From assembly GCA_937899415.1 (NCBI GenBank), contig CALBPI010000069.1:4280-68279 (forward strand): a stretch of 64,000 nucleotides of DNA. Direction: 5' to 3'. The stretch's first letter is position 1. The number at the start of each line of letters is the position of its first letter. Made by a program: the position numbers and the translations under genes. Of this stretch, positions 8,124-55,134 are shown in pieces. Below the pieces are notes generated by a model. The model ran no database searches. It saw nothing but the letters and a program-made list of their open reading frames with translations, and had not been told where the DNA came from. The DNA is from an uncultured Gammaproteobacteria bacterium. Lineage in GTDB: Bacteria; Pseudomonadota; Gammaproteobacteria; Steroidobacterales; Woeseiaceae.

Positions 8124-9226
8124 GGCCCCGCCTCGATGGTCATCACGAGCGGCAGGTGGTCCGACACACCGCGGCGACGCTCGAGATCGAAGCGCCGCAC
8201 CGTGCCGTCTTCATTGAGCTGATCGCGGTAGCCGTTCGCGAGGTAAACACCGCCCGTGCGGATGCGCCAGGATTCCTGCGCCGCGGGTGCCGGTGAGAAC
8301 AGCACCATGTCCAGAAACGACCAGCTCTTGCCGGTGCGCCAGTAGTTGGTGCCGATGCAGCCGTCGCAATCGACTTCGTGCGCCACGCGCCAGTAAGGCC
8401 GCACACGATCATCCATGATGCTGGTGTCGGTCATCTCACGGTTAGGCGTGTTGAAGTCGCCCGCGGCAAACACCACGTGGGCATCGGGCACATTGGCCCG
8501 CAGCTCGTTGAGATGGTCGTAAGCCAGCTCGCGCATCTCGATGGGATGGAACGGTGCCGGGAAGTGTACGGCAAAGCCTGTGAGCAGCCTGCCATCGGGT
8601 AACTCGAACGTGGCTTCGAGCACACCGCGCGTGTCATCCGCCCGGTCGGGGAACGCATCCATGTTGAACGGGTGCAACACGGGCATACCGCGAATCGGCA
8701 GCCGGGACAAGAACGCCACATCGATCCCGCGCAGGTCGCGCCCCTCGAGAAGCACGAGCTCGCGGTAACCCGCCGCGCCCAGGTAGTCGCGCGTCAGGCG
8801 CTTTAAGATGTTGACGTTCTCGACTTCCTGCAACGCGATGATGTCGGGCCCGCGCCCGTCGTTCACCTGCAGGATCGCCGCCGCCACCTGTTCAAGCTTG
8901 AATTCGAGCGCTTCATCGCTCCAGTCGAGCTCGAGGCATTCGCTGCGCCAACGGGGCACCTCGATGGGCTCGCAGAGTGCCTTGTGCGCCGCCGTCTGCT
9001 TCATCGCAACCGGCAGGTAGGCGTGGTCGTCCTTGCCCGGGTCGTCCGTATTGTCGAATAAGTTCTCGACGTTGAAGGTCATGATGGTGACCGTTGGCGC
9101 CTCCGCCGCGGTCGCCGGCTGCGTGCTATTGATGCCGCAGGCGTTCAACAACAACGCACACAAGAGTGGCGCGGCACGCCACAGGCGCGCGCCCGTTTGT
9201 ATTGCAGTTACCCGCCGTTCACCCAT
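8120..9226 (-). CDS. Endonuclease/exonuclease/phosphatase (EEP) family lipoprotein
   Basis: Motifs are TIMTFNVENLFD, PDIIALQEVEN, AAGDFNTP and GVSDHLPLVM. I chose the internal start MGERR...LLCALLLNACG (lipobox) at 9226, 16 nt after the upstream gene's stop. The track ORF extends to 9376. Confidence 0.8.
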   Translation of the reverse strand: MGERRVTAIQTGARLWRAAPLLCALLLNACGINSTQPATAAEAPTVTIMTFNVENLFDNTDDPGKDDHAYLPVAMKQTAAHKALCEPIEVPRWRSECLELDWSDEALEFKLEQVAAAILQVNDGRGPDIIALQEVENVNILKRLTRDYLGAAGYRELVLLEGRDLRGIDVAFLSRLPIRGMPVLHPFNMDAFPDRADDTRGVLEATFELPDGRLLTGFAVHFPAPFHPIEMRELAYDHLNELRANVPDAHVVFAAGDFNTPNREMTDTSIMDDRVRPYWRVAHEVDCDGCIGTNYWRTGKSWSFLDMVLFSPAPAAQESWRIRTGGVYLANGYRDQLNEDGTVRRFDLERRRGVSDHLPLVMTIEAGP

Positions 9227-9242
9227 ACGCCTCACCTGCTGT

Positions 9243-11012
9243 TCATTCCGGCTCCAGTAACCAGTACCCGGCGTCGATGCCCGTCGGCACGTAGTTATCT
9301 GCTGAGGGCTCGAGAATGCGCGCCTCACGAAACAGTATCGCAAGGTCACGCAACATGAGGCGACTGTTTGCGACATAGGAGTGCCCCTTGGTCGCCTGGC
9401 TCACATCGACCGTCTGCATGGGCGGTGCCACCATCGGCCTCGGGTGTGTTTCGCCGGCACGCTGGTAGTTTTCCTCGTCGCCACCCTGCAGCGCACGCGA
9501 CAGCAACAGCGCCGAATCGTGAGCCGACGCATAGAGCGTCACACCGTCGGTGATACGGTCCAGCGCTTCGATCTTCTGCGCCAGCAGGTCCCGCTTGATA
9601 TCTGGCGCGGCGAATACCAGCTGGCCAAACGCATTGTCCGGCAAACCGTCCGCCGACAGTTTCTCGACAGCCTGTGACAGCGCCCGCGTGCCCATGCTGT
9701 GCGCGATCAGGTGGATGCGTGTTGCGCCCGATTCCCGGTGCAGCTCCTCAAGGAACTGGCGCAGGTGCAGCACGCTGGTTTCGACATTCGCGGCATCGGT
9801 CAGGTAGTCAAGGACGGCGCCCTGCGACGGCCAGCTGAAGAATACCGGCGCACCGGGGAACTGCATGTCGTGCGCAATCTGCGCCGTTCGAAATGCTGCG
9901 TCCTGGAACGTGTTGTGGAAGCCGTGCACGAAAACGAACGCCTGCTTCTCCGGGTCCCGCGCCAGTGTCTCGGAGAGTTCGGCATAGAATGTCTCGTCGT
10001 CAGGCGGCGTCACTGCGGCAAGCTGGAAGTGCTTGGTAGGGTCCACCGCGAATTCGAGCCGGATGAGACTGGGCCGGTTAAGCTCGCCCGCGCGCCGCTT
10101 GGGCGGAATCGAGACACTGACCCAGCCCCGTTCATAGGGCGTGCCGTATGCATCCGCCTCGCGAATCTCATTACCAAACTTGACCTTGAGGATGGCGTCG
10201 TCCTGGCGCATCAGGAGCGACTTCTGCAGCCCCAGGCCGCCGAGCACCACGATGGCAAGCCCGCCGACCACCCGCACGACCAGGCCCAGGCGACTTTGGT
10301 GTTCTTCCTTGATATAGCGGCGGATGGCGCGCGTGAGCAACGCGGTAAGCACGAGTGCCACGGCAAAGCCCAGGAAGGGCTTCAGGTAGTCCCCGAAGGT
10401 CCGCGACAGGCGCACCCGGTTGGTCGCGAAATACACGCGCTTGAGAATGGGAGTGTCGTCAGCAAGGTCCTCGAGTTCGACCTCGGCGGCCATGACCTCG
10501 GTCGTTGTCGCTTGGTCGGCACGCACGATGGCGCCCGCCGGCGCCAGGTTGGGTAGCATATCGACCTGCCGGCGCGCCTCCTCCAACTCGCGCGCCAGCA
10601 CGGCATTCTGCTCCGCCAGCTGCCGCACTCTGTTAACGCTGGCTTCGCTGGCGGCGCGGGCTTCAGCAACACGTATCTCGGCTTCCCGCGCTTCCTGCAT
10701 CGCGCGCGCCTCCACGTCGCGCAATGCTTCGGCCAGTGCCGCAGCGCGTGCCTCGGCTGCCGCCGCAGCGGCGCGCGCCTCGGCCAGGGCGGCCTCAGCA
10801 TCGGCCAGTTCCTGCTCCAGCTGCGCAATCCGCGCCTCGCGCGCCGCGAGCGTGGTCTCGTGATCTGCGACGCGCTGCTCGAGCCGATCGACCTGCGTGT
10901 CCTGACGTTGCGTCACGCCATCTTCGGCACTGTCGCGGGCACAAGCTGTCAGCAGCGCGACCAGTACGACCGCAACACCCCTATTCATGGCGGTGGAACT
11001 GTGCATCTTCAT
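9243..11012 (-). CDS. DUF900-family alpha/beta hydrolase with an N-terminal lipobox, a coiled coil and two TM helices
   Basis: The N-terminus is MKMHSSTAMNRGVAVVLVALLTAC (lipobox). An Ala/Glu/Arg-rich heptad region of ~150 aa follows, then two hydrophobic helices (FLGFAVALVLTALL and VVGGLAIVVLGGLGL). The DUF900 core is FVFVHGFHNTFQDAAFRTAQIAHD...PVFFSWPSQG...IHLIAHSMGTRAL, where GxSxG takes the form HSMG. Its start overlaps the upstream stop (ATGA). Confidence 0.8.
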   Translation of the reverse strand: MKMHSSTAMNRGVAVVLVALLTACARDSAEDGVTQRQDTQVDRLEQRVADHETTLAAREARIAQLEQELADAEAALAEARAAAAAAEARAAALAEALRDVEARAMQEAREAEIRVAEARAASEASVNRVRQLAEQNAVLARELEEARRQVDMLPNLAPAGAIVRADQATTTEVMAAEVELEDLADDTPILKRVYFATNRVRLSRTFGDYLKPFLGFAVALVLTALLTRAIRRYIKEEHQSRLGLVVRVVGGLAIVVLGGLGLQKSLLMRQDDAILKVKFGNEIREADAYGTPYERGWVSVSIPPKRRAGELNRPSLIRLEFAVDPTKHFQLAAVTPPDDETFYAELSETLARDPEKQAFVFVHGFHNTFQDAAFRTAQIAHDMQFPGAPVFFSWPSQGAVLDYLTDAANVETSVLHLRQFLEELHRESGATRIHLIAHSMGTRALSQAVEKLSADGLPDNAFGQLVFAAPDIKRDLLAQKIEALDRITDGVTLYASAHDSALLLSRALQGGDEENYQRAGETHPRPMVAPPMQTVDVSQATKGHSYVANSRLMLRDLAILFREARILEPSADNYVPTGIDAGYWLLEPE

Positions 11013-14000
11013 TTCTTGAGACTCCTGGCGAAGGCCTCGGCAATCTGCTTCGGCAGCTTGCCGGCCTGCATCAGATTGACCGCAATACTCAAGACACGGA
11101 CCCGTCCCTTGTAGGCGATTTCCACACGCAACGCCACATCGTCAGGCAGCAGGGGGCGCACCGACTTCTCGAAGCGCACGGACCGGATGTTGGGGATACC
11201 GGAATCAATGCCCTCGTCCACGCTGCGACGGACATCGGCCAACACCTGTTGGTTCTTAGGCATGCTCTTGAGCACGCGCTCTGCCGAAAGCCGTTGCTTC
11301 GTCGCCGCTGGCAATTCGTCGATCGCCTCTATGGCCTGCTTCACTAGCTTTACCTGCGTCTTGCTCAGCACGGGTTTGTGCCGGTATAGCAGGATGCCGG
11401 GGAAGCCCTTGAACTCGCCCAGGCGTATTTCTGCAACGTTCTCGCGGATCAGCGCCTTGAGCGCGCGCTTGAGGTTGGTGCGGTAGCGTCTGTCTATTTT
11501 GGCCTTCGCCGCATTTTGCACCGCCGTGAGTTTGTCGATCCAGGGCTCAGCCGCCTCGCGCGCTTCCTTGGGCGCAAACGGCTTGGCCCCCGCGACAATA
11601 AGCTTCCTGCCGACGTGCTTGCCCGCCCAGCTGTCCATCATGGCGTGCACAGAGCGTTTGCTGGTCTTGCTGGCAATGCGCCGCTTCACCTCGGCGCAGA
11701 CTGGCGGAATGTTGCGCCGAACGCCCCGCAGACTCGCCTCGAAACTGTCCTTTTTCTTGATGGCCGAGATCAGCATGTTGTAGCCGTCGGAAACCTCGTT
11801 GCCCACGGCCTTGTTGGCGACGGACTTGAGCCCCTTACGGAAGGACGCGCTGAAGCCCTTGGGCAGCTCGAGCTCGAAGCCAGCGTTGAACAGTGAGTTT
11901 CGCTTGCCCGGCAAAGACAGAAACATCGTCGCACTGAGATCGCCAACCTTGAGCTCCGCTGGCTTGAACATCAGGCCATCGGCGCTCGCCACCGCGCTGG
12001 TACGCACCTCGATCCGGTCGCGGCCTGGCGTATCCCAGACCACGGTGCCGGAGATGGCCAGACCACCGGCGTCGATCTTGAGAGTGCCCTGCAACCAGAA
12101 GTCGTCAGCCAACACGAGGCGGATGCGGGCCTCGAACAACTCACCCGGCACCACCTTGAGCGAGCCGCCCAGCGCAAAGGTCTTGCGGGCGATCTGCAAG
12201 GCGATTTCGCCGGCGACGTTGACGGCGACCTTGTCGGAGTCGTCCCGCACCCGGCGCGTCTTGACCAGACCGTTGATACGAACCGCCAACAGCCCTTCCG
12301 GGCCGATTTGCAATGTCTGACGAACCGCAAGCTGGCGGTTGCCGGGCCCCGTCAGGGCCATACCGAACTGGGTCTTGCTGCGAATGAGGTTGACCCGGCC
12401 CACCTTGATCGCCGCCTCGCCCATCATGAGGACGAGATAGCCCTTGTCGTATGGTGCGCCGCCCATGTTGACCGGCGTGCAGCCGATCATCGCGACGGGG
12501 TCGGCCTTGGCCAGCTTGCGCATCGCCGACTTGCTCTTCATGACCACGTTGCGAAACTCCGCATCGGTGGTCACGCAACACACGGCACGAAAGCTCAGCG
12601 GACCGAATGCCATATCAATGTCGCTGATCCGAGGCCACTTCGTGGCACGCCCCTCTCGATAGGACAACGGCACCGTTCGGATCAGCCAGCCCGCGTTGCC
12701 CGCCTTGATACCGTCGATGCCATGCGCCAGCGTGTCGGCCATCTCGAGTGGCGGCAGTGCGCGATCTATGCCGATGCGCGCGCCGCCCAGATAATTCGGC
12801 AACGACAAGGTCGCCGGACCCAGCGTAAAGGGCAACGCCAGGCTGTCGGGCAAATTGTCGTCCTGATGAAGGAAGACCTGGTCATCCGTAAAAAACCGCA
12901 CCAGCGAGACGACCAGACGCACCCAGTCGCCCAGCGAGGGCTCCGGGTCCGGAAACGCCGCCTGCAACTGCATGCCGAGCCCCAGGAAATTGCGATAGCG
13001 CCAACCCAGCTCGTCGTAGAACAAGGGCATGGGCACGGGAGCGGCCATCGGCACCAGCGCGACGAGCTTGCGCAAGGTCACTCGATTGGTGATGGCCTCG
13101 CCCTTGCCACTCAGCAGCGCGAACACTAGGTTGACGATATCGAGCCGGTCGATCCAGCCGTCGAAGCGCACCACACCCAAGGCGCCGCCGCTGGAGACGC
13201 CAAAGCCCACCTCATAAAGCGTAACGCCCATGAGAGCCGGCAGGGGTGGTACTCCCGCGACGGTCGGCATGATGACGCGGATTGGTTTGTCGTCCTCGAC
13301 ACCAACGGTCACATGGGCGCCGCCACCGGGCTCGATCGCAAGGTCAAAGCGGAAATTGGTTGGAATGTGTAGCTGCAGATAGTCCTCGAAATCCGCAGGC
13401 AAATTGTCGATACCCTGCGCCAGCGCGTCAGCCAGTTTCTCGAACGCGGCGGTGACCGCCTTCGATGGGGTGCCGAGCATATCGAGCAATTGGGGCACGA
13501 CCTCGGGCGAGGCGAGGTCCAGCTCACGCAGTGGAATGCAATCCGGCATCTTGTTTAGTAGGGCATCCGGCAGGCCACATTTGCGCGCGAGCCAGCGAAC
13601 GGGCGTCAGGGGTAACGAAAGACCATCGCTTGAGAGCACGCCGCCGCTTGCCCGCCAGCGCCCCCCCTTGAAGTCGAAGGTGAGTTCGGGCACCAGAAAA
13701 CTCAGCGTGCCGATGCCCTCGAATTGATGCCACTCGGTCCACAGCGACCCGTCGGGTAAGGTGCGCAGCGCAATGGCTCGAAACGGCGAGGTCTTGGGCT
13801 GTACGCGAACGCCGCCGTCGACGACCAGCGCAAGGTCCAGACGCTCGACAAAAACATCGGCACCGCCCAGCAGACGGTTGAGTCGGTCCAGCGCGTCTAC
13901 GCGCAGATCGGCACCGAGCTGCCAGGTATTGCCCGCGCCGGAACGGCGCCGTATGCCGATGGCGCGCACCGACACATCGGGTGCCGGTATCGCGTCCGAG

Positions 14001-16066
14001 CCGATATCGAGCGCCAGGCTTTGCAAACCGTCCGATTCGAGCTGCAGTGCGATCTCATGCGCCCCGAGCTGCAGTGTGGCGCGCACTTCGGTCTCGGGCA
14101 GCAACACGCTGACAGGAAACGGGACGCCTTCAAAGTGTACTCGTGCGTCGGCCGTGACCTGCCACGGCGCCTCGCGGCCGCTGCGCGCGAAACCAACCGA
14201 TAGCAGGGACACGACCGTAGCCGCGGCCTCAGGCTGATCCGGATCGATGGACAGCGGTAACCGCACGGCCTGATCGCCGGCATCCGGGTTGGGTGTCAGC
14301 TGAATACCATTGGCCGACAGCGACACCTGCGCCTGGTAAGTCATCAGGTCAGGCAACTCGAGCGCGCCCAGCGCCTGCAGTGCCGTACTGCGCTGCTTGC
14401 CCACGCGGCTGACCACCATCGCGACCTGCTCAAGCCACAGCGTTGCCACATCGGGCACTAACGCCACCTGAACCGGCGTCGTGACAGACAGCCGCAATGC
14501 CGAGCCCTGGCCTGATTGTTCATAGCTCGCGCGCAAAGCGACCGGGCGGTCGAATAGCGAAGCCTCAAGGTCGCCAGCAACCACCCACGCGCCGTCGGCG
14601 CCGAGATTGAAACTGAGCTCAACACCGCCCAGCACGAGTGCCGTATCGATCGCGATGGGCCCGTCAGCGCTTACGGCGAGTTCGGCGATGGGCGGCTTAC
14701 CGGCGCGCAGCGCAAGCTGCAGGCGGCAGGTCAGCGCCGTCGGTGAGCCCGTGTCGAAAAGATCTGCGTGAACCGTGACCGAAGACTGCAGGCGCAACAC
14801 GCCCTGGCTGCCCGAGATCTCGAGCGCCGTAGAACCGAACGCAATTTCCGGTAGCTCAGGAGGTGCGGTCACATCAAAACGCGCCAATAGCGCCACCAGG
14901 GTCGTCGGCCGCAGGCTGCCTGCCAACTCGGTATCGCGCCCGATGGCGCCCCGCACGGCCACACGCTCGCCGCCGACTACGGTCGTCGCGTAAAGCCGTG
15001 CACCGGGATTGTCCGCCGACAGCTCGAGGTCGAGCTGCAGGCCCTGCAATGTGGCGTTGGTGCCCGGAATCGGCCAATCGCCTTCGAGCGTACTCATCGC
15101 CTGCAGACGCTTGCCGGGCCAGTCGGCGTCAACGCTAAGTTGCCGAATAGACAACGCCGGCAATAGGTCGGGCGGCGCAGACCCGGCAAGACCACGATAG
15201 AGCGACGCCAATGACACGCCCGACTCGTTGTCCAGCGCGCCGCGGAAGCGGAACTGCGGCAGCTCGCCAGACAGCGCGATGGCAGTGCCCCCAATCCTTA
15301 GCGTGGCGCTGGCACCCATCGAGACGCGGCGCCGCGCCGCATCGGTGAGGCTCTGGCCCTGCAGCGATACCGCGAACGACGCCAGCGTGACGCCATCGAA
15401 TGGCGTTGCAACCTCGGGCACGCGCAAACCCAGCTCGACGGCGGCGGGCACGAAGGTACCGGCCCGCAGCGCCAAAGCCAGCGTGGTCAGCTCAATCTCA
15501 CCGCGCAGCTGATCGACCGGCAGCTCAGCCAGCAAGCTGCCCAACCCACTGGCCTCGAGCAAGCCGGACAATGCGGCAAGGTCGAACGTCTGGTTTTCGA
15601 CCCAAACGTCGATGGTGTCGGTGCTGGATGCGATGCGCAGCGTATGTTGCTGGCCGCGCACCGCAATGGTGACCACCAGCGTCGGCTCGGCCATGAGCAA
15701 CGCCTCGCCGGTGCCGCCCATCGCAACATGCAGTTGGGCATCAATGAGCCGCGCCTGTTCGAGAAACGGCAGCGCTACGGCCGATGACGGCAAAGCGCAA
15801 TCGAGATGCCCATGCCAGGTGTCGTCTGAGCCCTCAAGCGTCAGCGACGCCGACTGCTCAGGCAAACCGAAGGGACGCACGGGTCCGCGCGCAGCCACGA
15901 TGGCGCCATCGGCCTCGGCCATTGTGAAGGCCCAGGTCTCCACACCGGGTACCCGGTCCTGCAGCAGTGCCAGATTGTCGAGCGCCACGTCGTCGAGCCA
16001 CGCGTCACCGCGACGCAGGTTGGCTGCCACTGTGTCCATCCAGACTGTTGGGCGTCGCGCGCTCAT
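11009..16066 (-). CDS. 1685-aa hypothetical protein with no recognisable domain (orphan giant)
   Basis: This is a single uninterrupted ORF in GC3-rich host-like coding sequence, with ATGA overlaps to both neighbours. I see no signal peptide, TM helix or catalytic motif. The first ~1350 aa are Ala/Leu/Gly/Val-rich and beta-like. The last ~330 aa are Lys/Arg-rich and helical. Confidence 0.8.
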   Translation of the reverse strand: MSARRPTVWMDTVAANLRRGDAWLDDVALDNLALLQDRVPGVETWAFTMAEADGAIVAARGPVRPFGLPEQSASLTLEGSDDTWHGHLDCALPSSAVALPFLEQARLIDAQLHVAMGGTGEALLMAEPTLVVTIAVRGQQHTLRIASSTDTIDVWVENQTFDLAALSGLLEASGLGSLLAELPVDQLRGEIELTTLALALRAGTFVPAAVELGLRVPEVATPFDGVTLASFAVSLQGQSLTDAARRRVSMGASATLRIGGTAIALSGELPQFRFRGALDNESGVSLASLYRGLAGSAPPDLLPALSIRQLSVDADWPGKRLQAMSTLEGDWPIPGTNATLQGLQLDLELSADNPGARLYATTVVGGERVAVRGAIGRDTELAGSLRPTTLVALLARFDVTAPPELPEIAFGSTALEISGSQGVLRLQSSVTVHADLFDTGSPTALTCRLQLALRAGKPPIAELAVSADGPIAIDTALVLGGVELSFNLGADGAWVVAGDLEASLFDRPVALRASYEQSGQGSALRLSVTTPVQVALVPDVATLWLEQVAMVVSRVGKQRSTALQALGALELPDLMTYQAQVSLSANGIQLTPNPDAGDQAVRLPLSIDPDQPEAAATVVSLLSVGFARSGREAPWQVTADARVHFEGVPFPVSVLLPETEVRATLQLGAHEIALQLESDGLQSLALDIGSDAIPAPDVSVRAIGIRRRSGAGNTWQLGADLRVDALDRLNRLLGGADVFVERLDLALVVDGGVRVQPKTSPFRAIALRTLPDGSLWTEWHQFEGIGTLSFLVPELTFDFKGGRWRASGGVLSSDGLSLPLTPVRWLARKCGLPDALLNKMPDCIPLRELDLASPEVVPQLLDMLGTPSKAVTAAFEKLADALAQGIDNLPADFEDYLQLHIPTNFRFDLAIEPGGGAHVTVGVEDDKPIRVIMPTVAGVPPLPALMGVTLYEVGFGVSSGGALGVVRFDGWIDRLDIVNLVFALLSGKGEAITNRVTLRKLVALVPMAAPVPMPLFYDELGWRYRNFLGLGMQLQAAFPDPEPSLGDWVRLVVSLVRFFTDDQVFLHQDDNLPDSLALPFTLGPATLSLPNYLGGARIGIDRALPPLEMADTLAHGIDGIKAGNAGWLIRTVPLSYREGRATKWPRISDIDMAFGPLSFRAVCCVTTDAEFRNVVMKSKSAMRKLAKADPVAMIGCTPVNMGGAPYDKGYLVLMMGEAAIKVGRVNLIRSKTQFGMALTGPGNRQLAVRQTLQIGPEGLLAVRINGLVKTRRVRDDSDKVAVNVAGEIALQIARKTFALGGSLKVVPGELFEARIRLVLADDFWLQGTLKIDAGGLAISGTVVWDTPGRDRIEVRTSAVASADGLMFKPAELKVGDLSATMFLSLPGKRNSLFNAGFELELPKGFSASFRKGLKSVANKAVGNEVSDGYNMLISAIKKKDSFEASLRGVRRNIPPVCAEVKRRIASKTSKRSVHAMMDSWAGKHVGRKLIVAGAKPFAPKEAREAAEPWIDKLTAVQNAAKAKIDRRYRTNLKRALKALIRENVAEIRLGEFKGFPGILLYRHKPVLSKTQVKLVKQAIEAIDELPAATKQRLSAERVLKSMPKNQQVLADVRRSVDEGIDSGIPNIRSVRFEKSVRPLLPDDVALRVEIAYKGRVRVLSIAVNLMQAGKLPKQIAEAFARSLKK

Positions 16067-18066
16067 GCGTCTAGGTTCAGCAGCAGCTGCAGCGCAGACA
16101 GCTTGTCTTCGGTATTGGCTAACCCGGCAATGGCGAGCACCGCCTCATCACGCATCTCGATGATGCGCGCGTCGTTGAGGTCATTGAGTTGTTGGCGCAC
16201 GTCCTCGATTGTTGCGCGATCGAAATAGGTCGCAGACACCACGCGACCGCGCGCGTTGTAGAGCGCTCTCGATTCCAGGCGATGATAGTAGGCCGGTATG
16301 TCGTGGTGGCTGAGATCGTCATAGTCATGCTGGTCCGTATGCAGCTGATCCGCGGGATGGGCCGCATTGCCCGCGCCAAGGGCAAGCTTTGCGGGAGGAT
16401 GCAGGAACGCATCCACGCGATGCCACGCGGGCCGGTCCGGCGTGTTGGCTTGGCCTTCGGGATTGCGCGTGCTGTGAGCGGAGGCCGTGATAATGCCGAG
16501 CGCACGCATATAGCCCGCACTCGGCACGGGTACCGCGCGCGCCATGCAGTCACCCATGGCGTCGATCCATGTCGTAAATTCCGGCTGATTGTTTGCAATC
16601 AGGGTCAGCGTGTGTTGCATGGCCGCCCCGATGCGCGCAGTCTGCTCGCGCGGCAGAACGCGGCGCCAGCCCGAACCGTGCAGTTCGACCACCCGGTTGC
16701 TTGCCGGCACACTCCTGATCGAGTCTACGGAATCGAGATACATGCGGGAGGTACCATCGAGCTGGATGCCAATCGCCTGCTGCTTGATGAGCCAGCCTGT
16801 CAGCCCACCCGTCTCCTGTTTGTCCGCGTCATTCTCACCGCCGGCACCACCCGGTGCCGATTTGTCCGATACCGCCGCCGTACCGGGCAGTGACGTGATG
16901 GGGCCGGAGAAACTGACTTCCAGATCAATGGGTACCGGCAGCTTGTCGTGCGCAATGATGTTTTCGAGGTGCAAGTCAGACCACGAAAACACGCGTGCAA
17001 TTGCCAGCCACGCGCCCCAGGTACGATAGAACACGTCGCTCTGCTCCGTGGTGGTCAGCCAGTCGGAAGCCGCGAAATCCGCGTCACTGACCGGCCCCGC
17101 TGGCAAGCCGTCAATGCCCGCCTCGGGCGCATGGCGGAGAAACTCAATGTAGCCGTAGGAGTTGCCAACCGGCAATTGGTTGTCGTTGACCTCAAGCCCG
17201 CTACCCGGGTGCCTGGGCAAGATCCGGTAGGTCGGTAGTTCCGGCACGTTCGGGTTGAGGCCGGCCTGCAGGCGCAACGCGTTGATCAGTTCGGCCAAAC
17301 TCTGCGGCGGCGCGTCATCCCCGTAGGGGTTGTAGGCATCGGTGCGACCGCAGAAGCGGTAGTCCATCTCGATGTCGGAGGGCTTGTAGACGAGTTTGTG
17401 TAGCCCCTCGTTGGCGCCGGCCACTTGCAGCGAGAAGAACAGGACCGCGCGGCCACGTTTGTGGGTATCGCCACCCGAGGGGGTGATCCTGACCAGCGCC
17501 GTGATGCCCGCGTCGTCGAAGAAGACGTTGCTGATGGTCTCGCGGTCGCCTGCCAGACGCTGAACGGCCAGCGCCATGCTGCTCCTGAACTGCTCGCTGA
17601 CGCGCTCCAACAGGACGCGAGTCGTCGCGTGGTACTCGAAAAACACATCGATGCCGGGCCGTCTGGTCTCGGTATCGACAATCAGCTCGGGGATGATGAG
17701 CCATTTGAAGTAGCGGTCGTAGATTCTGTCGGCCTGCTCGGGCTTGTCATCAGAAATGATGGCGTCGTAGGTCCGGCGCAGCTTGTTGATCTCGCTGATC
17801 TGCGGGGGCGGGCGCCAACGGTGACGCTTTCGCTCCAGATACTCGCGCAGCTCGTAGAGATCTCTGGCAACGGCTGCGGCCGTCAGCCGGTCCAGCAACT
17901 CGATAAGCGGCCGGACCAGCTGCGGGTCTTCAAGCGCTTGCACGGCGAACGGGTTTTGCGTCGCCACCTCATTTAGGCGTGTGATCACGGGAACGACGAA
18001 GCGCTCGTAGATCCGCCAGCGCTTCTTGCAGGGCGCCAGGCTTTTTAGCTGACTTTTATTGAGCAC
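16063..18066 (-). CDS. Stand-alone LanM-type dehydratase/kinase-like domain protein (DUF4135), no LanC domain
   Basis: The motifs PSGGDTHKRGRAVLFF...HKLVYKPSDIEMDYRF and SDLHLENIIAHDKLPVPIDLEVSF (DxHxxN followed by a metal-binding D) match the class II lanthipeptide synthetase N-terminal domain. The DIPAYY motif lies further downstream. The protein is 667 aa and ends without any LanC-like GxxHG, WCxG or CHG motif. The GTG start at 18066 is uncertain. Confidence 0.75.
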   Translation of the reverse strand: MLNKSQLKSLAPCKKRWRIYERFVVPVITRLNEVATQNPFAVQALEDPQLVRPLIELLDRLTAAAVARDLYELREYLERKRHRWRPPPQISEINKLRRTYDAIISDDKPEQADRIYDRYFKWLIIPELIVDTETRRPGIDVFFEYHATTRVLLERVSEQFRSSMALAVQRLAGDRETISNVFFDDAGITALVRITPSGGDTHKRGRAVLFFSLQVAGANEGLHKLVYKPSDIEMDYRFCGRTDAYNPYGDDAPPQSLAELINALRLQAGLNPNVPELPTYRILPRHPGSGLEVNDNQLPVGNSYGYIEFLRHAPEAGIDGLPAGPVSDADFAASDWLTTTEQSDVFYRTWGAWLAIARVFSWSDLHLENIIAHDKLPVPIDLEVSFSGPITSLPGTAAVSDKSAPGGAGGENDADKQETGGLTGWLIKQQAIGIQLDGTSRMYLDSVDSIRSVPASNRVVELHGSGWRRVLPREQTARIGAAMQHTLTLIANNQPEFTTWIDAMGDCMARAVPVPSAGYMRALGIITASAHSTRNPEGQANTPDRPAWHRVDAFLHPPAKLALGAGNAAHPADQLHTDQHDYDDLSHHDIPAYYHRLESRALYNARGRVVSATYFDRATIEDVRQQLNDLNDARIIEMRDEAVLAIAGLANTEDKLSALQLLLNLDA

Positions 18067-18104: not shown

Positions 18105-21100
18105 CTACTCCTGCCACACGGGTACGCGCCCCGGCGTGTGGGGCGAGCCCATGCGTTCCAGAGTTTCCTCGAGCGCCGTGAGGTCACGCTCGATGCCACG
18201 CAAGTCCGTCAGCGCCGAGCGGAAGGCGCTGGCCGCCATTGCGTAGGAGGACTCGTACATCTCGGGCACATCGGAACGCACATTGAGCAGCAGCCCGTAG
18301 ACGGCACCCGCACGCCGGGAGATCGACCAAGGCGTGGCCTCGTTGCGCGACGCCACCGTACGGTCGCCATTCAGCGCGACGACGAGGTCATCGAGGCGCG
18401 TCTTGATCTGACGCAGACGTTGCTCGTGCGACTCGTCGGCCGCCGGCGTATCCGTCAGCGCCGCCTTGAGGTGCGTGATGCGCGTGTTGAGCTCGCCCGT
18501 TAGCGCGCTGGCACCGGCCACCGCGCGGTAGAGCTCCCCGGCTTTGCGCTGGAACGCGGTAACGGCGCTGAGGTCCAGGCTCGTTTCCTTGCCCTGCGGC
18601 ATCGACTTGACCGTGAACGTCTTCGGCCCTGCAACCTCCTCAAGCGCGCCGTTCTGGCGAACCGCCAGGCTCACGGTGTACTCGCCGGGCGCTGCCAGCG
18701 GACCCTGCGGCGGTGAGGCCCAGGGCACCGAGACCGGTGTCGACAAGTCGACGGGATCGGTCGGCGGGTAGCGCAGGTCCCAGGCTGTGCGATGCACACC
18801 GGCGCCCGTTTTGCCGGCAACGCGACGCACGACATTACCGTCTGTGTCGCGAACGATCAGCATCACGGCCGGGTCTTCCTCGCGATCCTCGGCGCGCAGC
18901 GCCTCCCAGGAGGGGTACGGCGTACCGCCACCTTCCTTCTCGATCTCAATCTCCGCCTTGCGGCGCGTCTTGCTGGCGGACTCCAGGCCTTTCTCGAGGC
19001 GGTACGTAAACACGGCGCCGAACGGCGGGTTGTCGGCGTTGTAGTGCGTCGCACCGAAGAAGCCCTTCACGCCGTAACCGATGTTGTCACCGACGACGTA
19101 AGACCAGGCATCACGCACGTCGAACAGATGCTGTGCTTCGAGATCGCCGGCTGCCGTGCGCAGCGGTGTGTAGTCGTCGAGGATGTAGATGCCGCGCCCA
19201 AAGGTGCCGACCACGAGATCGTTCTCTCGTCGCTGGATTTCGATGTCGCGCACAGCGATTGTCGGGAAGTTACCCTTGAGCTGGTGCCAGGCATCACCAC
19301 CGTCCTGCGAAAAGAACACACCGAACTCGGTGCCGACGAACAACAGATCGGCGTCGACATGGTCCTGCACGATCGTGTGCGCCGAACCCCACTCGGGCAG
19401 GTTGTTCGAGATCAGCGACCAGCTGCGCCCCCGGTTCTCGGTCTTGAGCACGTAAGGCTTGTAGTCGCCACGCTTGTGGTTGTCGATGGTGGCGTAGGCG
19501 ACATCGGGGTCGTGCAGCGAAGCGACGACATCTTCGATGAGCGACATGTCGGGCACGCCGCGGAACGAATCGACGCGACGCCAGGTTTCGCCACCGTCTT
19601 CGGTGACGTTCATGACGCCATCATCGGTGCCCACGTAAATCAGGCCCTCGCTGAGCTCGCTCTCCGAAAGCGCAATCGCTGCGCCATAGATCGACGTAGA
19701 GTTGTTCTTGGCGATCGTGTCCACGCTCCAGACGCGGCCCATGACCTCAAGCGCATTGCGGTCGAGCTGTCGCGTCAGATCCGGGCTCACGGCTCGCCAG
19801 CTGTTGCCGCGGTCATCCGAGCGGAAGAGCTTTTCCGCAGCGTAGTAAATCCGCTTGCTGTTGTGCGGGCTGACGATCAGCGGCGTGTTCCAGTTCCACT
19901 TGTAGGCGTTTTCGCCATCGGCCGGGTGCGGCGCGATGAACACGCGCTCGCCACTGGTTCTGTCGTAGCGGGCGAGGCCACCGTACTGGTACTGCGTGTA
20001 GATGATATTCGGGTCTTCGGGGTCGAACTGCGGCTCATAGCCGTCGCCACCGAGGATCAGCGTCCAGTCGGCATTCGTGATGCCGTGGCGCATCGTCGTG
20101 CGCGAGGGACCGCAGAGCGAGTTGTTGTCCTGCGTACCGCCACAGACGTTGTAGAACGGCTCCGAGTAGTCGGGCTGTATGCGGTAGAACTGGGCAATAG
20201 GCAGGTTCGCGATCCAGCGCCAGTTCGCACCGTCGTCGTAGGTGTCGTAAATGCCACCGTCACCTCCGATCACGAGATGCGACGGCTCGTCGGGGTCAAT
20301 CCAGAGCGCGTGGTCATCCACGTGACGGTGGTCGCCGCCGTAGCGTGACCACGTTGAACCGCCGTCGACCGACACGTGCGTAAACGTATCGACCGAGAAC
20401 ACGCGGTCGGGATTCGTCGGATCCACAACCAGCTCGTTGTAGTACTGCGGGCTCGAGGTCATGTGGCCCGAGCGCTTATCCCAGGTCAGGCCGAAGTCAT
20501 CGGAGCGGTAGATGCCCTGCTCGTCTGACTTGGCCTCAATGATCGCGTAGACGCGGTCCGCATCACCCGGTGCGCCCGCAAGACCGATGCGACCCATGTT
20601 GTCCTTGGGCAGGCCCGATGAGATTTCGGTCCAGGTCTCACCGCCATCTGCGCTGCGGTGGATGCCGCTGCCGGGTCCGCCGTTGATGAGCGTCCAGACA
20701 TGGCGGCGGCGCTGGTAGCTCGAGGCCACGATGCGGCTGCTGTCGCGCGGGTCGACGACGAACTCGTTGATGCCCGTGTCGGCATCGACAGAGAGGATCT
20801 GCGTCCAGTTCTCGCCACCGTCCGTGGTCTTGTAAAGGCCGCGGTCGCCGCCCGAATTCCAGAGCGGGCCCTGGGCCGCGACGAGCACGGTGTCGCCGTC
20901 CTCGGGGTCGATCCAGATCTGGCTGATATGGCCCGAGTTCTTGAGCCCAACGTTGGACCAGCTCGCGCCGCCATCAAGCGACTTGTAGACGCCGTCGCCG
21001 TAACCCACGCTGCGCTGCGCGTTGTTCTCGCCCGAGCCGACCCACACCGTGTTGGGGTTGGAAGGATCCAGCTCAACGACGCCCAGCGCGTAGCTGCCTT

Positions 21101-21353
21101 CGCCGTCAAACAACGGCTTCCAGGTCGTGCCGTTGTTCTCTGTCTTGAACAAACCGCCCGAGGCGACCGACGCGTAGTACACGCTCTTGTTGTCGGGGTG
21201 GAACGCAAAGTCCGAGATGCGCCCTGAGATTACTGCAGGACCCATCGTGCGCAGCGGCAGGCTGGCCAGCGGGTGTTTGTCGTCAGCCAGCGCCGGCGTC
21301 GGAGTCGCTGTCACAAGCGTGCAGGCGAGCAGCACAGAGATCAAACGAGTCAT
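18105..21353 (-). CDS. Sortilin/VPS10-like BNR (Asp-box) repeat protein, secreted
   Basis: It carries repeated Asp-box motifs: FKTENNGTTW, YKSLDGGASW, YKTTDGGENW, HRSADGGETW, YRSDDFGLTW and SVDGGSTW. I chose the internal start MTRLISVLLACTLVTATPTPALA (signal peptide) at 21353, which has an AAGGA RBS. The track ORF extends to 21512. Confidence 0.85.
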   Translation of the reverse strand: MTRLISVLLACTLVTATPTPALADDKHPLASLPLRTMGPAVISGRISDFAFHPDNKSVYYASVASGGLFKTENNGTTWKPLFDGEGSYALGVVELDPSNPNTVWVGSGENNAQRSVGYGDGVYKSLDGGASWSNVGLKNSGHISQIWIDPEDGDTVLVAAQGPLWNSGGDRGLYKTTDGGENWTQILSVDADTGINEFVVDPRDSSRIVASSYQRRRHVWTLINGGPGSGIHRSADGGETWTEISSGLPKDNMGRIGLAGAPGDADRVYAIIEAKSDEQGIYRSDDFGLTWDKRSGHMTSSPQYYNELVVDPTNPDRVFSVDTFTHVSVDGGSTWSRYGGDHRHVDDHALWIDPDEPSHLVIGGDGGIYDTYDDGANWRWIANLPIAQFYRIQPDYSEPFYNVCGGTQDNNSLCGPSRTTMRHGITNADWTLILGGDGYEPQFDPEDPNIIYTQYQYGGLARYDRTSGERVFIAPHPADGENAYKWNWNTPLIVSPHNSKRIYYAAEKLFRSDDRGNSWRAVSPDLTRQLDRNALEVMGRVWSVDTIAKNNSTSIYGAAIALSESELSEGLIYVGTDDGVMNVTEDGGETWRRVDSFRGVPDMSLIEDVVASLHDPDVAYATIDNHKRGDYKPYVLKTENRGRSWSLISNNLPEWGSAHTIVQDHVDADLLFVGTEFGVFFSQDGGDAWHQLKGNFPTIAVRDIEIQRRENDLVVGTFGRGIYILDDYTPLRTAAGDLEAQHLFDVRDAWSYVVGDNIGYGVKGFFGATHYNADNPPFGAVFTYRLEKGLESASKTRRKAEIEIEKEGGGTPYPSWEALRAEDREEDPAVMLIVRDTDGNVVRRVAGKTGAGVHRTAWDLRYPPTDPVDLSTPVSVPWASPPQGPLAAPGEYTVSLAVRQNGALEEVAGPKTFTVKSMPQGKETSLDLSAVTAFQRKAGELYRAVAGASALTGELNTRITHLKAALTDTPAADESHEQRLRQIKTRLDDLVVALNGDRTVASRNEATPWSISRRAGAVYGLLLNVRSDVPEMYESSYAMAASAFRSALTDLRGIERDLTALEETLERMGSPHTPGRVPVWQE

Positions 21354-21382
21354 GGTGTGTCCTTTATCTTTGTTTTCAGAGC

Positions 21383-22312
21383 TTAGGCCTGGACTGCACG
21401 CCACGCCGCGAGAATCTCGCCAGGTGCCGCACTCCAGACCTTGCCGGATTGCGTGATGTATTCGAGTACGCGTTCGAGCGCACGGATTCGGTGTGGTTGC
21501 CCCAGCATCCAAGGGTGAATATTGAGCGCCAGCAGGCGTCCGCCACCCGTGGCTTCGGCTTCGCCGATGAGGAAGTCGCAGGCGTCCTCAACCTGTTCAG
21601 CCCATTCGAGCTCGGCGTGGCCGTTGTCCGTGATGACGAAGCGGTCTTCGAGCTCTGTCGACAACGGCATCGCCGTAAGCTCGCCCGCGGCGGTGCGGAA
21701 CGGAAACGGCAGGTCGTCGTTGATCCAGTCGCACATGAATTCAACGCCATGCTCCACGAGCAACGCGGGTGTGTTCTCGCTCTGGCTCTTGGCCGGGCTC
21801 AGCCAGCCTTTGATCGACTGTCCGGACGCGCCGCGCAGCACGTCGAGCGACCGCGCGATACGCTTGCGCTCTTCGGCCGCGTCCAAACCACCGTAATGCA
21901 GGCTGTCCATGTCCCAGCCGTGACAGAGCAGCTCATGGCCACGATCGACCACACGCTGCAGCAAGTAGGGCGTGCGTTCGGCAAGCCGGGCACTCATGGC
22001 GACGCTGGCGGTAACGCCGAACGCGTCGAGCGCCTTGAAGATCCGAAAAACACCGACTCGGTTGCCGTAGTCGCGCAGCGTGAAGTGACGCAGGTCCGGG
22101 TAGGCCGTGACCATGCCGCCCGGCGGCGGGAACGGTTTGCCTTTCTGGTCGAGCGGGAAGAACTGCAACGCGACGTTCACCCAGAGCGCCAGCGGCTTGT
22201 TGCCGGGCCAGGTGACGGGCGCGCGATCGGCGAGCATCGACCAGTCGTAGTGGTCGTGGTCCATACCGTAGCCACGGCGCGCGTACTTGAGGTAGTCGCC
22301 GTCGAGACTCAT
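21383..22312 (-). CDS. Polysaccharide deacetylase-family protein (PuuE/CE4-like)
   Basis: It resembles the PuuE-type allantoinase/deacetylase fold (YGNRVGVFRIFKALDAFGV, ELLCHGWDM, AEERKRI). It is a paralog of the upstream gene, with an ATGA overlap. Confidence 0.75.
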   Translation of the reverse strand: MSLDGDYLKYARRGYGMDHDHYDWSMLADRAPVTWPGNKPLALWVNVALQFFPLDQKGKPFPPPGGMVTAYPDLRHFTLRDYGNRVGVFRIFKALDAFGVTASVAMSARLAERTPYLLQRVVDRGHELLCHGWDMDSLHYGGLDAAEERKRIARSLDVLRGASGQSIKGWLSPAKSQSENTPALLVEHGVEFMCDWINDDLPFPFRTAAGELTAMPLSTELEDRFVITDNGHAELEWAEQVEDACDFLIGEAEATGGGRLLALNIHPWMLGQPHRIRALERVLEYITQSGKVWSAAPGEILAAWRAVQA

Positions 22313-23226
22313 GACGTCGCGCCCCGCGCCTCAATGTCGGCAACGGCCGCATCGTAGTGATTCGCAATCCAGTGCTCGGCGATCTCGCGCCCCGTGGTCA
22401 CCCAGACATCGCTGTGGCCCGTGATGTACTCGAGCGCCTCCTCGAAGGCACGCAGCCGGTGCGGGTGCGACACCTGATAGGCATGCAACGGAATGCACAT
22501 GACGACGGGGTTGTCGGCGCCCTCGGCGTAGAGCCGGTCGAAGTTGGCCTTGAGCATCTCGCCGTAACGGCGTGGCTCAATCTTGTTGGCCACATAGACG
22601 ATCGTGTCGTTCATCTCCAGCGAGTACGGCACCGAGATGAACTTCTCACCCGAACGCACGCGAACCGGCGTCGGTTGATCATCGTGAAACAAGTCGCAGG
22701 TGTAGATACCGCCGGCTTCTGCGAACAGGTCGAGCGTGTGCTCGGTGTGCGTCAGCGCGGGCGCCAGGTAGCCGGCACAAGGCTTGCCGGTGTGCTCAAG
22801 GATCGTGGCCATGGCGGCCTCGATGACCTCACGCTCCTGCGCCTCGCTCATGCCGTAGACGTAGCGCGTGTTGTAGATGCCGTGGCTGAAGAATTCCCAG
22901 TCACGATCGCGACACATGGCGATGATCTCGGGGTGGTGGTCGCAAAGCGCCGTCGACAGTGAGATCGAACCGCGCACACCGTACTTGTCGAGCAGGTTCA
23001 TGAGGCGCATGTGGCCGACGCGGTTACCGTAGTCGCGTGTGGCGTAGCCGTGCACGTCGGGCACGGGTTTGGGCCAGGCTTTGCGGTGCGGGTTTACAGC
23101 CGGGTCGAGCTCGTAGAACTCGATGTTGGGGGCGACCCAGAACGCGACGCGCGCGCCACCGGGCCAGCTGATCTTCGGCCGATCCTCATAGGGCCAGTAG
23201 TGATACAGGCCTGGGTCTGAGCGCAT
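22309..23226 (-). CDS. Polysaccharide deacetylase-family protein (PuuE/CE4-like)
   Basis: Motifs YGNRVGHMRLMNLLDKYGV, EFFSHGIYN and SEAQEREVI are collinear with PuuE-like enzymes and with the downstream paralog. Confidence 0.75.
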   Translation of the reverse strand: MRSDPGLYHYWPYEDRPKISWPGGARVAFWVAPNIEFYELDPAVNPHRKAWPKPVPDVHGYATRDYGNRVGHMRLMNLLDKYGVRGSISLSTALCDHHPEIIAMCRDRDWEFFSHGIYNTRYVYGMSEAQEREVIEAAMATILEHTGKPCAGYLAPALTHTEHTLDLFAEAGGIYTCDLFHDDQPTPVRVRSGEKFISVPYSLEMNDTIVYVANKIEPRRYGEMLKANFDRLYAEGADNPVVMCIPLHAYQVSHPHRLRAFEEALEYITGHSDVWVTTGREIAEHWIANHYDAAVADIEARGATS

Positions 23227-23261
23227 AGACGTCCCCCAAAAATGCGCGCAACGTGAACGGG

Positions 23262-23966
23262 TTAGAACGGGCTGCCGCGAGCCTCGCGAATCGGTTGGCA
23301 GCCCGGGTGCTGTTTCAACCAGGCCTCAACAGCGGCGATGTCCTCGACATCCGCGTACTTGAGCATCATGTCACAGAGGTTCGCGAAGTGCGGGATCTCG
23401 TGTTTGTCGGCCACGCACTCCTCGGGAATGATCGTGCGGTAGCCGTGTGACAGCGAGGCGACGCAGGACGCGCGCACGCAGCCAGAGGTGCTGCCGCCCG
23501 TCAGGATCACGGTGTCCACCTTGTGCCAGACGAGCAGCGACGGGATCAGCGTGTCGTGAAACACGCTGGCCATGCGTTTGTTGATGACGGCGTCGCGGGC
23601 GCGGTCGATCTCGAGCCGCGGGTCGAGCTCGGACCGCTCCGAGTCTTCGCGAATATTCTGCAACGAATCCGGCGTGTTGGTGCGCGTACCCCAGGCGCCC
23701 GCGTCGTCGGCGCTGTCCATGTAGGCCACGTAGGTCCAGATAACCGGCATGTTTTTGGACCGCGCCAGCGCCGACAGCCGGTTGATGTAGTCCAGCTGGT
23801 TCGGGTCGGTCTGGTAGGCCGTCTTGAAGGTCTCGGTGTCGGTGTAGGCACGCTGCAGATCGATATTGATGATCGCGGCCTTCTCACCAAAGCCGAACTT
23901 GGCCCGGTTCGGGTTGCGCTTGATCTCGGCCCAGTACTCACGGGGCGTCAGGTCAGAGGTTTGCAT
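23262..23966 (-). CDS. Isochorismatase-family cysteine hydrolase
   Basis: AAIINIDLQRAY, VDTVILTGGSTSGCVRAS (catalytic Cys context) and the ~230-aa size are typical of isochorismatase and N-carbamoylsarcosine amidase-like hydrolases. Confidence 0.8.
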   Translation of the reverse strand: MQTSDLTPREYWAEIKRNPNRAKFGFGEKAAIINIDLQRAYTDTETFKTAYQTDPNQLDYINRLSALARSKNMPVIWTYVAYMDSADDAGAWGTRTNTPDSLQNIREDSERSELDPRLEIDRARDAVINKRMASVFHDTLIPSLLVWHKVDTVILTGGSTSGCVRASCVASLSHGYRTIIPEECVADKHEIPHFANLCDMMLKYADVEDIAAVEAWLKQHPGCQPIREARGSPF

Positions 23967-25804: not shown

Positions 25805-25877
25805 GCAGGGATCGTAGCAAACCCCTTGCAGCGGGCACCGTCGACCGTGTCACGCGCACCGAAGCACGCGCGACGCG

Positions 25878-28685: not shown

Positions 28686-28795
28686 TCCAAGGCCCTGTTC
28701 CGTTGTTCTTCTATCGGGCGGGCACCCGGCCCTATCCTGCCCGAAAGGCCGGCCCGTTTCCGGGCCGGCCACGCGTTACCGCATAGACACAAGTG

Positions 28796-54897: not shown

Positions 54898-55134
54898 TTA
54901 TGGCAACGTTGCCGTCGCACCATCGACACTGCCCGTCACCGGTATCGTGGAACCGTCGTTTCGATCGATCACTTCAACGGCAGTGAGCGATGCCTGGAAT
55001 GTCGTCGCAACGGGTGGCGGCGGGGTGACGACGACGTCGCCGCCACCTCCACCGCCCCCACCGCAGGCGCCAAGCGTGCCGGCCACGGCAAGGAGTAGTA
55101 TCGCGTTCGAGATTCGGAAGCGTTTAGAAGTCAT
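54898..55134 (-). CDS. 78-aa lipoprotein, translationally coupled to the giant surface protein
   Basis: MTSKRFRISNAILLLAVAGTLGACGGGGGGGGDVVVTPPPP has a classic signal peptide and lipobox followed by poly-Gly and poly-Pro linkers. Its ATG lies inside the last codons of the upstream gene (GTGACGTATGACTTCTAA). It ends just before the terminator. Confidence 0.6.
   Translation of the reverse strand: MTSKRFRISNAILLLAVAGTLGACGGGGGGGGDVVVTPPPPVATTFQASLTAVEVIDRNDGSTIPVTGSVDGATATLP

Follow-up and report, generated by a model that had tools for sequence, protein, structure and literature searches.

The dehydratase domain of LanM enzymes, DUF4135 (PF13575), is the usual marker of class II lanthipeptides. 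It has a lipid-kinase (PI3K-like) fold, and mutagenesis of CylM assigned K274, D347, H349, N352 and D364 to phosphorylation and D252, H254, R506 and T512 to phosphate elimination, which is abolished by T512A (PMC4550811). Genome-mining pipelines start from the LanC cyclase and use PF13575 to assign class II (PMC7268733), so a stand-alone DUF4135 family would go unreported; in the literature that we searched, DUF4135 is treated as a LanM domain or listed in a kinase clan. The closest precedent for an atypical DUF4135 enzyme is CcaM (LanMbC) of the dehydrazole (carnazolamide) pathway, a divergent, leader-independent dehydratase that acts outside canonical lanthipeptide ring formation (PMC10676384). 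Here we describe a 64,000-nucleotide stretch from an uncultured Gammaproteobacteria bacterium of the Woeseiaceae (GenBank assembly GCA_937899415.1, contig CALBPI010000069.1, positions 4,280 to 68,279), hereafter the window. One of its genes, gene A, encodes a DUF4135 protein that keeps the kinase and elimination residues of LanM; directly after it comes gene B, a giant gene whose functional link to A is strongly supported.

Gene A and its motifs, numbered along the window and along the protein, are the following.

16063..18066, minus strand: gene A, a stand-alone LanM-type dehydratase (DUF4135) protein of 667 residues with a GTG start (Pfam; family profile against CylM)
17452..17475, minus strand: P-loop GGDTHKRG, residues 198-205; D200 and H202 match D252 and H254 of CylM, two residues that help in eliminating the phosphate (CylM alignment)
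residues 225-238, minus strand: motif LVYKPSDIEMDYRF, read in the sequence
17380..17391, minus strand: VYKP, residues 226-229; K228 corresponds to CylM K274, the lysine of the ATP gamma-phosphate (alignment)
16960..16977, minus strand: catalytic loop D364-L-H366-L-E-N369, corresponding to CylM D347, H349 and N352 (alignment)
16918..16929, minus strand: IDLE (within PVPIDLE), residues 380-383; D381 corresponds to CylM D364, a metal ligand
16519..16539, minus strand: R510...S516, corresponding to CylM R506 and T512, KA-domain residues for phosphate elimination (the profile has 'vRyvplaT' where CylM has 'VRNVIRPT')
16285..16302, minus strand: DIPAYY, residues 589-594, aligned with CylM 'DIPIFY' (D589 in 161 and P591 in 162 of 163 family members)

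The gene A protein matches the Pfam model of DUF4135 with an E-value of 3.7e-30 (105.8 bits, gathering cutoff 29). This is its sole Pfam match: the LanC model PF05147 finds nothing, as expected from the initial annotation, made from the sequence alone, which had the protein stop at residue 667 before any cyclase. That C-terminus nearly coincides with the end of the CylM dehydratase domain. Against the full-length LanM model TIGR03897 of NCBIfam the protein reaches 111.4 bits, far under the cutoff of 304. With LanC also unmatched, gene A thus encodes the dehydratase half only. When the protein was compared alone with Protein Data Bank (PDB) chains by phmmer, CylM (5DZT) was found at E 3.6e-8 and LicM2 (6ST5) was matched as well; a family profile, built from an alignment of 17 stand-alone homologues, raised these to E 8.6e-30 over residues 140-585 for CylM and E 1e-15 for LicM2. 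The sequence identical to the gene A protein is named at NCBI 'DUF4135 domain-containing protein [Pseudomonadota bacterium]'.

All nine catalytic residues of CylM have an aligned counterpart in the gene A protein: K228, D364, H366, N369 and D381 for phosphorylation; D200, H202, R510 and S516 for elimination. We assessed their conservation in 163 non-identical members of the family, each 580 residues or longer, aligned to its profile. K228, D364, H366, N369, D381, E383 and R510 are present in 163 of 163, D200 in 161 and H202 in 162. At position 516, the counterpart of CylM Thr512, the family has Thr in 160 members, Ser in two (the gene A protein included) and Pro in one; by residue type, the Thr-to-Ser change in the gene A protein is a conservative one. 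This pattern indicates that the phosphorylation and elimination half-reactions are both under strong purifying selection. Judged by the residues retained, gene A is predicted to encode a catalytically competent ATP-dependent Ser/Thr kinase and phosphate lyase of the LanM dehydratase type. The initial annotation had listed hallmark motifs of LanM N-terminal domains, and each of them lies at the residues and nucleotides given there, including the catalytic loop and metal ligand at 16924-16977. Its description of a dehydratase with intact residues and no cyclase, LanA or LanT nearby stands, and degenerate catalytic residues, which it had named as contrary to its reading, are not seen; a correction is that residue 516 is Ser in place of the usual Thr. 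Its interpretation as a whole is partly supported, the downstream partner being a putative substrate.

Gene A is not an isolated case. A word-indexed search with its protein returned 18 homologues, all of them DUF4135-only and 16 of them 587-793 residues long. When the family profile was run with HMMER against 1.84 billion cluster representatives, it matched 305 at E <= 1e-30, 2693 at <= 1e-10 and 6284 at <= 1e-3; the first figure counts 50%-identity clusters. The top 150 matches are mostly 580-750 residues long and score above 300 bits. The gene A protein itself, which is part of the profile, scores 683 bits and orthologues outside the profile 500-615 bits; a LanM-sized protein of 1089 residues (locus L038) scores 85. 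Identity to true LanMs is about 20%, and orthologues 37-53% identical to the gene A protein retain its architecture and partner. Seven long outliers of the family were checked with Pfam, and none has a LanC domain. P0114 carries DUF6603 and fn3, P0124 a WD40 propeller, and P0072 a weak Scabin-like ADP-ribosyltransferase stretch (E 5e-4, under the Pfam cutoff); the other four are DUF4135 only. On these sequence comparisons, gene A belongs to a distinct, widespread stand-alone family and is not a decayed LanM. For the purposes of defining a module, we describe its first gene as one encoding a DUF4135-only protein of 580-750 residues that the family profile scores above 250 bits, as gene A does.

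Related loci were gathered by exact-protein look-ups and by scanning a single genome for each GTDB species, which added 32 further loci, followed by open reading frame (ORF) calling and all-against-all clustering. The 32 come from Acidobacteriota, Bacteroidota (six Chitinophaga genomes, a Flavobacteriaceae and a Cytophagales genome), Actinomycetota including Streptomyces, Gamma-, Alpha- and 'Delta'-proteobacteria, Chlorobiaceae, Cyanobacteria and Methanotrichaceae archaea. No family member was found in the viral contigs, phage genomes and plasmids searched, where the sole match is a genuine LanM on a Priestia plasmid. Four loci, L015 (Stenotrophomonas sp. LGBM10), L030, L037 and L039, hold divergent stand-alone DUF4135 proteins of 103-338 bits with no B-family gene next to them, and may represent another context for the domain.

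The partner gene and its elements are as follows.

11009..16066, minus strand: gene B, the 1685-residue partner protein, a divergent member of the giant-partner family (hhalign; orthologue in L005)
13967..16066, minus strand: Bn, the N-terminal ~700 residues of B, with repeated long beta-hairpin modules (BLASTP, Bn profile, hhalign repeats, AlphaFold2)
16063..16066, minus strand: ATGA overlap between the stop of A and the start of B (sequence gcATGAgc, the ATG of B lying over the TGA of A)

A B-family gene lies directly 3' of A in 31 of 35 informative loci, across about eight phyla and archaea, and in every such locus the spacing between the two is -4 to +65 nt. The -4 overlap of the window recurs in L005, L008, L013, L019, L027 and L034. 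The partners are 1200-1760 residues long, with one archaeal B of more than 3276. In the 2658-residue P0114 the two are naturally fused in gene order, with A at 48-718, the N-terminal region of B at 782-1625 and DUF6603 at 1693-2178, followed by fn3. Because of this adjacency, the tight spacing and the fusion, we regard the downstream giant gene as the dedicated partner of A, and a functional link between them as strongly supported. This bears out the initial annotation on two points, namely the translational coupling of A to the 1685-residue ORF, which can be read in gcATGAgc, and the choice of that neighbour as the partner. In six loci, tandem A-A paralogues precede a single B; by analogy, they resemble paired LanMs with different site specificities.

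The window's B is divergent. It matches nothing in Pfam, NCBIfam, PHROG, PADLOC or the PDB sequences; a word-index search returned only itself, and a 16-sequence profile only six proteins. Its membership in the partner family was nevertheless established by more sensitive comparisons. Residues 233-374 align by BLASTP with residues 250-393 of the L001 partner (E 1e-9) and 259-404 of the L004 partner (2e-9). With hhalign, the alignment of window-type B proteins matches that of canonical B proteins (described below) collinearly over ~1200 residues, at a probability of 99.8% and E 8e-29, and a hidden Markov model (HMM) of Bn recognizes the window's B at E 1.7e-13. In L005, a B orthologue of 1687 residues, 38% identical, stands beside an A that is 37% identical to the window's. 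The second gene of the module can accordingly be described as one starting no more than 65 nt downstream and encoding a protein of more than 1200 residues with a Bn region, as the window's B does. A promoter and terminator scan of the operon gave nothing above shuffled controls.

The window's B protein lacks a signal peptide, and no transmembrane helices are evident in it. Ser and Thr make up 11% of its residues and Cys 0.5%, and its last ~280 residues are rich in Lys and Arg. Off-diagonal hhalign matches reveal internal repeats in Bn. The motif N(L/P)TDxxxR occurs at equivalent positions in two of these repeat modules, once or twice per protein against 0.2-0.9 expected; it lies at 15328-15345 in the window (B residues 241-246) and, in many canonical B proteins, near residues 250 and 380. 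Judged by sequence, it is possibly a modification or turn motif. The shorter pattern [ST]DxxxR was considered as a universal modification site and set aside, being recurrent yet not universal.

AlphaFold2 modelled residues 1-900 of the window's B from a 13-row alignment with a mean predicted local distance difference test (pLDDT) score of 65 and a predicted template modelling score of 0.46. Residues 10-590 are modelled as long antiparallel beta-hairpins with few short helices, at a pLDDT of 55-90 per ten residues, and helices start near residue 856. The DUF6603 region of a canonical B was modelled with a mean pLDDT of 72 (best blocks ~85-93) as a long up-and-down beta-sheet. In a Foldseek search of PDB, the window model found nothing better than E 0.03, and the DUF6603 model matched VDAC/Tom40, porins, FadL, TonB-dependent receptors and the ApoB100 belt with E-values from 4e-4 to 1e-2 and template modelling (TM) scores no higher than 0.33. 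Over both models the weak matches are to lipid-facing beta-sheets, LptD among them (E 3.8e-4 to 0.06), and a viral structure library gave no convincing match. Since this amounts to generic beta-sheet or barrel similarity with TM scores of at most 0.33, no fold is assigned to B. The models suggest a very large beta-meander sheet of no recognizable fold, possibly lipid-facing.

The surroundings of gene A hold none of the usual lanthipeptide machinery. Of the window's 35 larger ORFs our Pfam scan covered 28, among them every one from 904 to 48494; the other seven lie towards the window ends. None of the 28 matched a LanC, peptidase C39, ABC transporter or exporter, immunity-type, YcaO or radical SAM family. 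Their families are housekeeping (aconitase B, an E1 dehydrogenase, peptidases M1, M3 and M28), envelope or secreted (a TonB-dependent receptor, PKD proteins, a BNR/Sortilin glycosidase-like protein) and regulatory (an ECF sigma factor beside a Ser/Thr kinase with TPR repeats). Genes are tightly packed around gene A, the largest intergenic gap within 10 kb being 204 nt. Seven small ORFs lie between genes in that range; Cys, Ser and Thr together exceed 20% in none of them. The initial annotation had reported no Cys/Ser/Thr-rich small ORF, LanT or immunity gene within 10 kb, and the Pfam scan and small-ORF check agree; the two elements that it had named as contrary to its reading, a LanC gene and a precursor, appear neither among the scanned ORFs nor among the intergenic ORFs within 10 kb.

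The related loci agree with this. Over more than 30 of them, with 10-kb flanks, no small intergenic ORF is conserved near the cassettes except between pairs of close Chitinophaga genomes. No flanking family recurs in more than two of the 111 Pfam-scanned flanking proteins, and machinery for peptides that are made on the ribosome and modified after translation (RiPPs) is absent among the 25 most frequent Pfam families listed for them. The flanks are heterogeneous, with transposases at some loci. On these scans, the gene A locus is not a RiPP locus.

Comparison of the loci resolves two architectures. The canonical cassette has the order A-B-X-Y, or Y-Z-A-B-X in three loci, and occurs at L024:11611-21378, L017:11788-21528, L001:2798-18838 and ~15 other loci. 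Its B carries the Pfam domain DUF6603 (PF20248), with E-values down to 1e-144. X has ~720 residues and Y 900-1480, and neither matches anything in Pfam, NCBIfam, PHROGs, PADLOC or the PDB sequences; the C-terminus of Z is a phage tail-fibre/collar domain (PHROG E 1e-19). The second architecture consists of A and B only, and is found in the window, L005, L010, L013 and L027. Here B lacks DUF6603, by Pfam and by a purpose-built DUF6603 HMM, and retains Bn; in the window's B, Pfam gives no DUF6603 match at E <= 10 and the purpose-built HMM none. The L029 partner, of more than 3276 residues and ending at the contig end, is also without DUF6603. The genes X, Y and Z are all absent from the window, which is a minimal A-B module.

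Within the examined set of loci, the presence of DUF6603 in B correlates perfectly with that of X-Y, and the only region common to all A-linked partners is Bn. Conversely, P0022-P0025 are DUF6603 proteins with another N-terminus and no Bn, and the single located locus of such a protein (L043:5322-20685) has no adjoining A. This distribution ties A to Bn and DUF6603 to X-Y. One further locus, L042:2806-20744, combines DUF6603 in B with X-Y and no A, and together with L043 it indicates that the DUF6603 module is broader than its association with DUF4135. Upstream, L042 has unrelated genes encoding 1049 and 489 residues, without an assigned family. Decayed cassettes, in which A, B, X or Y is split into short ORFs, occur at L040:9707-19862, L035:9602-14987 and L041:10192-20432, their hosts being Chitinophaga sp. 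E66 and two Actinomycetota metagenome-assembled genomes; this indicates a dispensable cassette that is lost in some lineages. Altogether, heterogeneous flanks, transposases and decayed copies suggest a self-contained cassette that moves horizontally. In PADLOC-DB 2.0 there is no match for the window's A and B, for canonical A, B, X, Y and Z or for the L042 neighbour proteins, the sole matches being coiled-coil noise in a neighbouring hydrolase. Neither DUF6603 nor its pairing with DUF4135 is mentioned in the literature that we searched.

As the best explanation overall, to which we give slightly less than an even chance, A has left the lanthipeptide context and acts together with the giant, cytoplasmic, all-beta B, perhaps on B itself. 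Somewhat more tentatively, we infer that A phosphorylates Ser and Thr residues of B and eliminates the phosphate, with Bn or its vicinity as the most likely site. A would dock on Bn, phosphorylate Ser/Thr side chains of B and then eliminate the phosphate, leaving dehydroalanine or dehydrobutyrine, or remaining phospho-sites, in a protein instead of a peptide; the modification could activate, cross-link or mature the giant B. It is a bolder and more doubtful proposal that A would be the first LanM-type enzyme to dehydrate a folded giant protein, maturing a horizontally spread, hitherto unrecognized machine of which A-B is the minimal form and A-B-X-Y, with or without Z, the full one. Such a machine could, for instance, serve conflicts between microbes as a beta-sheet assembly that is cross-linked or inserts into membranes, and the A-B module itself is possibly a membrane-active or toxin/defence-like assembly.

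Several observations weigh against B as the substrate of A. To our knowledge, a folded 1685-residue beta protein is without precedent as the substrate of a LanM-type enzyme. The invariant columns of the B family are Pro and Gly only, with no invariant Ser, Thr or Cys, and N(L/P)TDxxxR, present in the Bn repeats of many B proteins, is neither universal nor kept in the closest orthologues of the window's B. The B models are of moderate quality (pLDDT 65 and 72) and have no convincing match to a known fold. Four of the 35 informative loci (L015, L030, L037 and L039) have no B at all, their A proteins being among the lowest-scoring; L042 has the reverse, a B with a weak Bn region and confirmed X-Y but no A. 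Finally, the fusions of A to a possible ADP-ribosyltransferase toxin domain (P0072, sub-cutoff) or to WD40 (P0124) hint that A could itself be an effector.

That last hint leads to another possible role, with A as the effector or payload of a B-based machine, acting on third-party proteins, and B (in canonical loci with X, Y and Z) as its scaffold, pore or delivery device. By irreversibly dehydrating or phosphorylating Ser/Thr in proteins of a target cell or phage, similarly to OspF/SpvC, A would make the module a toxin or an abortive-infection defence system. The B-X-Y cassettes without A suggest that A is swappable, and the patchy, cross-phylum distribution that includes archaea suggests horizontal transfer; the same role would fit the fusions to the weak Scabin-like domain and WD40, the tandem paralogues of six loci, the tail-fibre/collar C-terminus of Z, the decayed copies L035, L040 and L041, and flanks that are heterogeneous and at some loci contain transposases and nSTAND/WD40 genes. 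We nonetheless consider it unlikely. In systems of this type the effector is usually what varies, yet no gene of the cassette is more conserved than A; neither a signal peptide nor a known secretion-system gene is present; viral contigs and phage genomes contain no family members; X, Y and Z are missing from the window's module; and A, B, X, Y, Z and the L042 neighbours are unmatched in PADLOC. The lipid-kinase (PI3K-like) fold of the LanM dehydratase domain (PMC4550811) raises the thought that A acts on the hydroxyl of a lipid or small molecule, which B, as a giant amphipathic beta-sheet binding membrane or lipid, would present. Lipid-facing beta-sheets are indeed the best, if weak, Foldseek matches of both B models, but the similarity is that of generic up-and-down beta-sheets, and B is without a signal peptide and evident transmembrane helices. 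Moreover, the four residues for phospho-Ser/Thr elimination are nearly invariant, which argues for dehydration of a peptide or protein and leaves a lipid substrate quite improbable.

An orphan RiPP dehydratase, whose precursor and possibly cyclase lie elsewhere in the genome and whose adjacency to B is incidental, appears very improbable to us. Our view of the source genome is limited to 64 kb, excised LanM dehydratase domains are cited as active on peptides in PMC10676384, and atypical DUF4135 enzymes such as CcaM do serve RiPP pathways (PMC10676384). On the other hand, the adjacency to B is kept across phyla and was once fixed as a fusion, the 30+ loci with 10-kb flanks have neither conserved small ORFs nor RiPP machinery, and the TIGR03897 score is far under its threshold. 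The missing C-terminal cyclase half could also mark gene A as a truncated, decaying and functionless remnant of a LanM. Here the ORF is intact, with a GC content at third codon positions (GC3) of 0.77, similar to that of neighbouring genes; ~305 clusters fall in the same length class; catalytic residues are invariant; and orthologues at 37-53% identity have the same architecture and partner. At the level of sequence, a remnant is effectively refuted by these conservation data.

Three further genes adjoin the A-B pair.

18105-21512: BNR/Sortilin, F510_1955-like secreted protein, upstream, with a signal peptide from an internal Met (library matches)
9243-11012, minus strand: DUF900 alpha/beta hydrolase, downstream (Pfam E 1e-43), with the lipoprotein signal MNRGVAVVLVALLTAC
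8120-9376, minus strand: endonuclease/exonuclease/phosphatase (EEP) family protein, downstream (Pfam), with a likely start at Met51

They are set apart from the module because their conservation does not extend beyond near-identical or close relatives. The BNR/Sortilin gene is kept only in the close relative L008. The DUF900 hydrolase and the EEP protein are predicted exported lipoproteins, absent from L005 and from all other loci, and are probably not part of the A-B module. The hydrolase consists of the lipoprotein signal, a coiled coil of ~120 residues rich in Ala, Glu and Arg, two hydrophobic helices and the hydrolase domain; in its longest ORF the start codon shares an ATGA with the stop of the 1685-residue gene, but Met9 is the likely start. 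The longest EEP ORF overlaps the preceding gene by 134 nt, and a start at Met51 removes the overlap and gives the lipobox LLLNAC.

Upstream of the BNR/Sortilin gene and co-directional with it, two tandem polysaccharide deacetylase genes and an isochorismatase-family gene occupy 21383-23966 (minus strand), so that these genes, BNR/Sortilin and the A-B pair form one long minus-strand gene string. At 25229-28772 (minus strand), an ECF sigma factor of the PF07638 type (191 residues) lies directly 3' of a 964-residue Ser/Thr protein kinase (Pfam kinase E 9e-45) carrying a long TPR array. At the far end of the window, 55124-63196 (minus strand) is occupied by a very large ORF of 2690 residues with a GC3 of 0.75.

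The family shows the recruitment of a kinase-lyase active site into a non-RiPP context. Stand-alone DUF4135 genes give rise to false-positive 'lanthipeptide' calls, and their enzymes a candidate tool for site-selective protein dehydration. If B is the substrate of A, the enzymatic installation of dehydro-amino acids would extend from peptides to large proteins, and the pair would offer a first experimental handle on the DUF6603-type giants and on the X and Y families.

Gene A thus encodes an enzyme of a known kind in a context (a dedicated giant partner, a cross-phylum distribution, two architectures) that is undescribed in the literature searched. Its homology to LanM, represented by CylM (5DZT) and LicM2 (6ST5), extends over the whole dehydratase domain and includes all kinase and elimination residues, so its expected chemistry is that of LanM: ATP-dependent phosphorylation of Ser/Thr, then beta-elimination. 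In contrast to LanM, A has no LanC domain, LanA or LanT, and a giant protein partner takes the place of peptide substrates. CcaM resembles A as a DUF4135 dehydratase away from canonical ring formation, but its activity depends on a fused, zinc-less class III cyclase domain, its neighbours are YcaO and a short precursor, and its substrates are azole-containing peptides (PMC10676384); the domains that define LanMbC and dehydrazole clusters in that work are absent from the gene A protein and from the 28 scanned ORFs of the window. With the DUF6603 (PF20248) giants, the window's B shares homology, N-terminal collinearity and the position right after a DUF4135 gene, and differs in lacking DUF6603, in its other C-terminal half with a Lys/Arg-rich tail and in the absence of X and Y. 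Only a functional analogy connects A with the phosphothreonine lyases OspF/SpvC and the lyase domains of LanL, the latter related to OspF (PMC7268733): they turn phospho-Ser/Thr of a folded protein or peptide into dehydro-amino acids, as A would. Those lyases have an unrelated fold and need a separate kinase, whereas in A kinase and lyase would share one active site, as in LanM.

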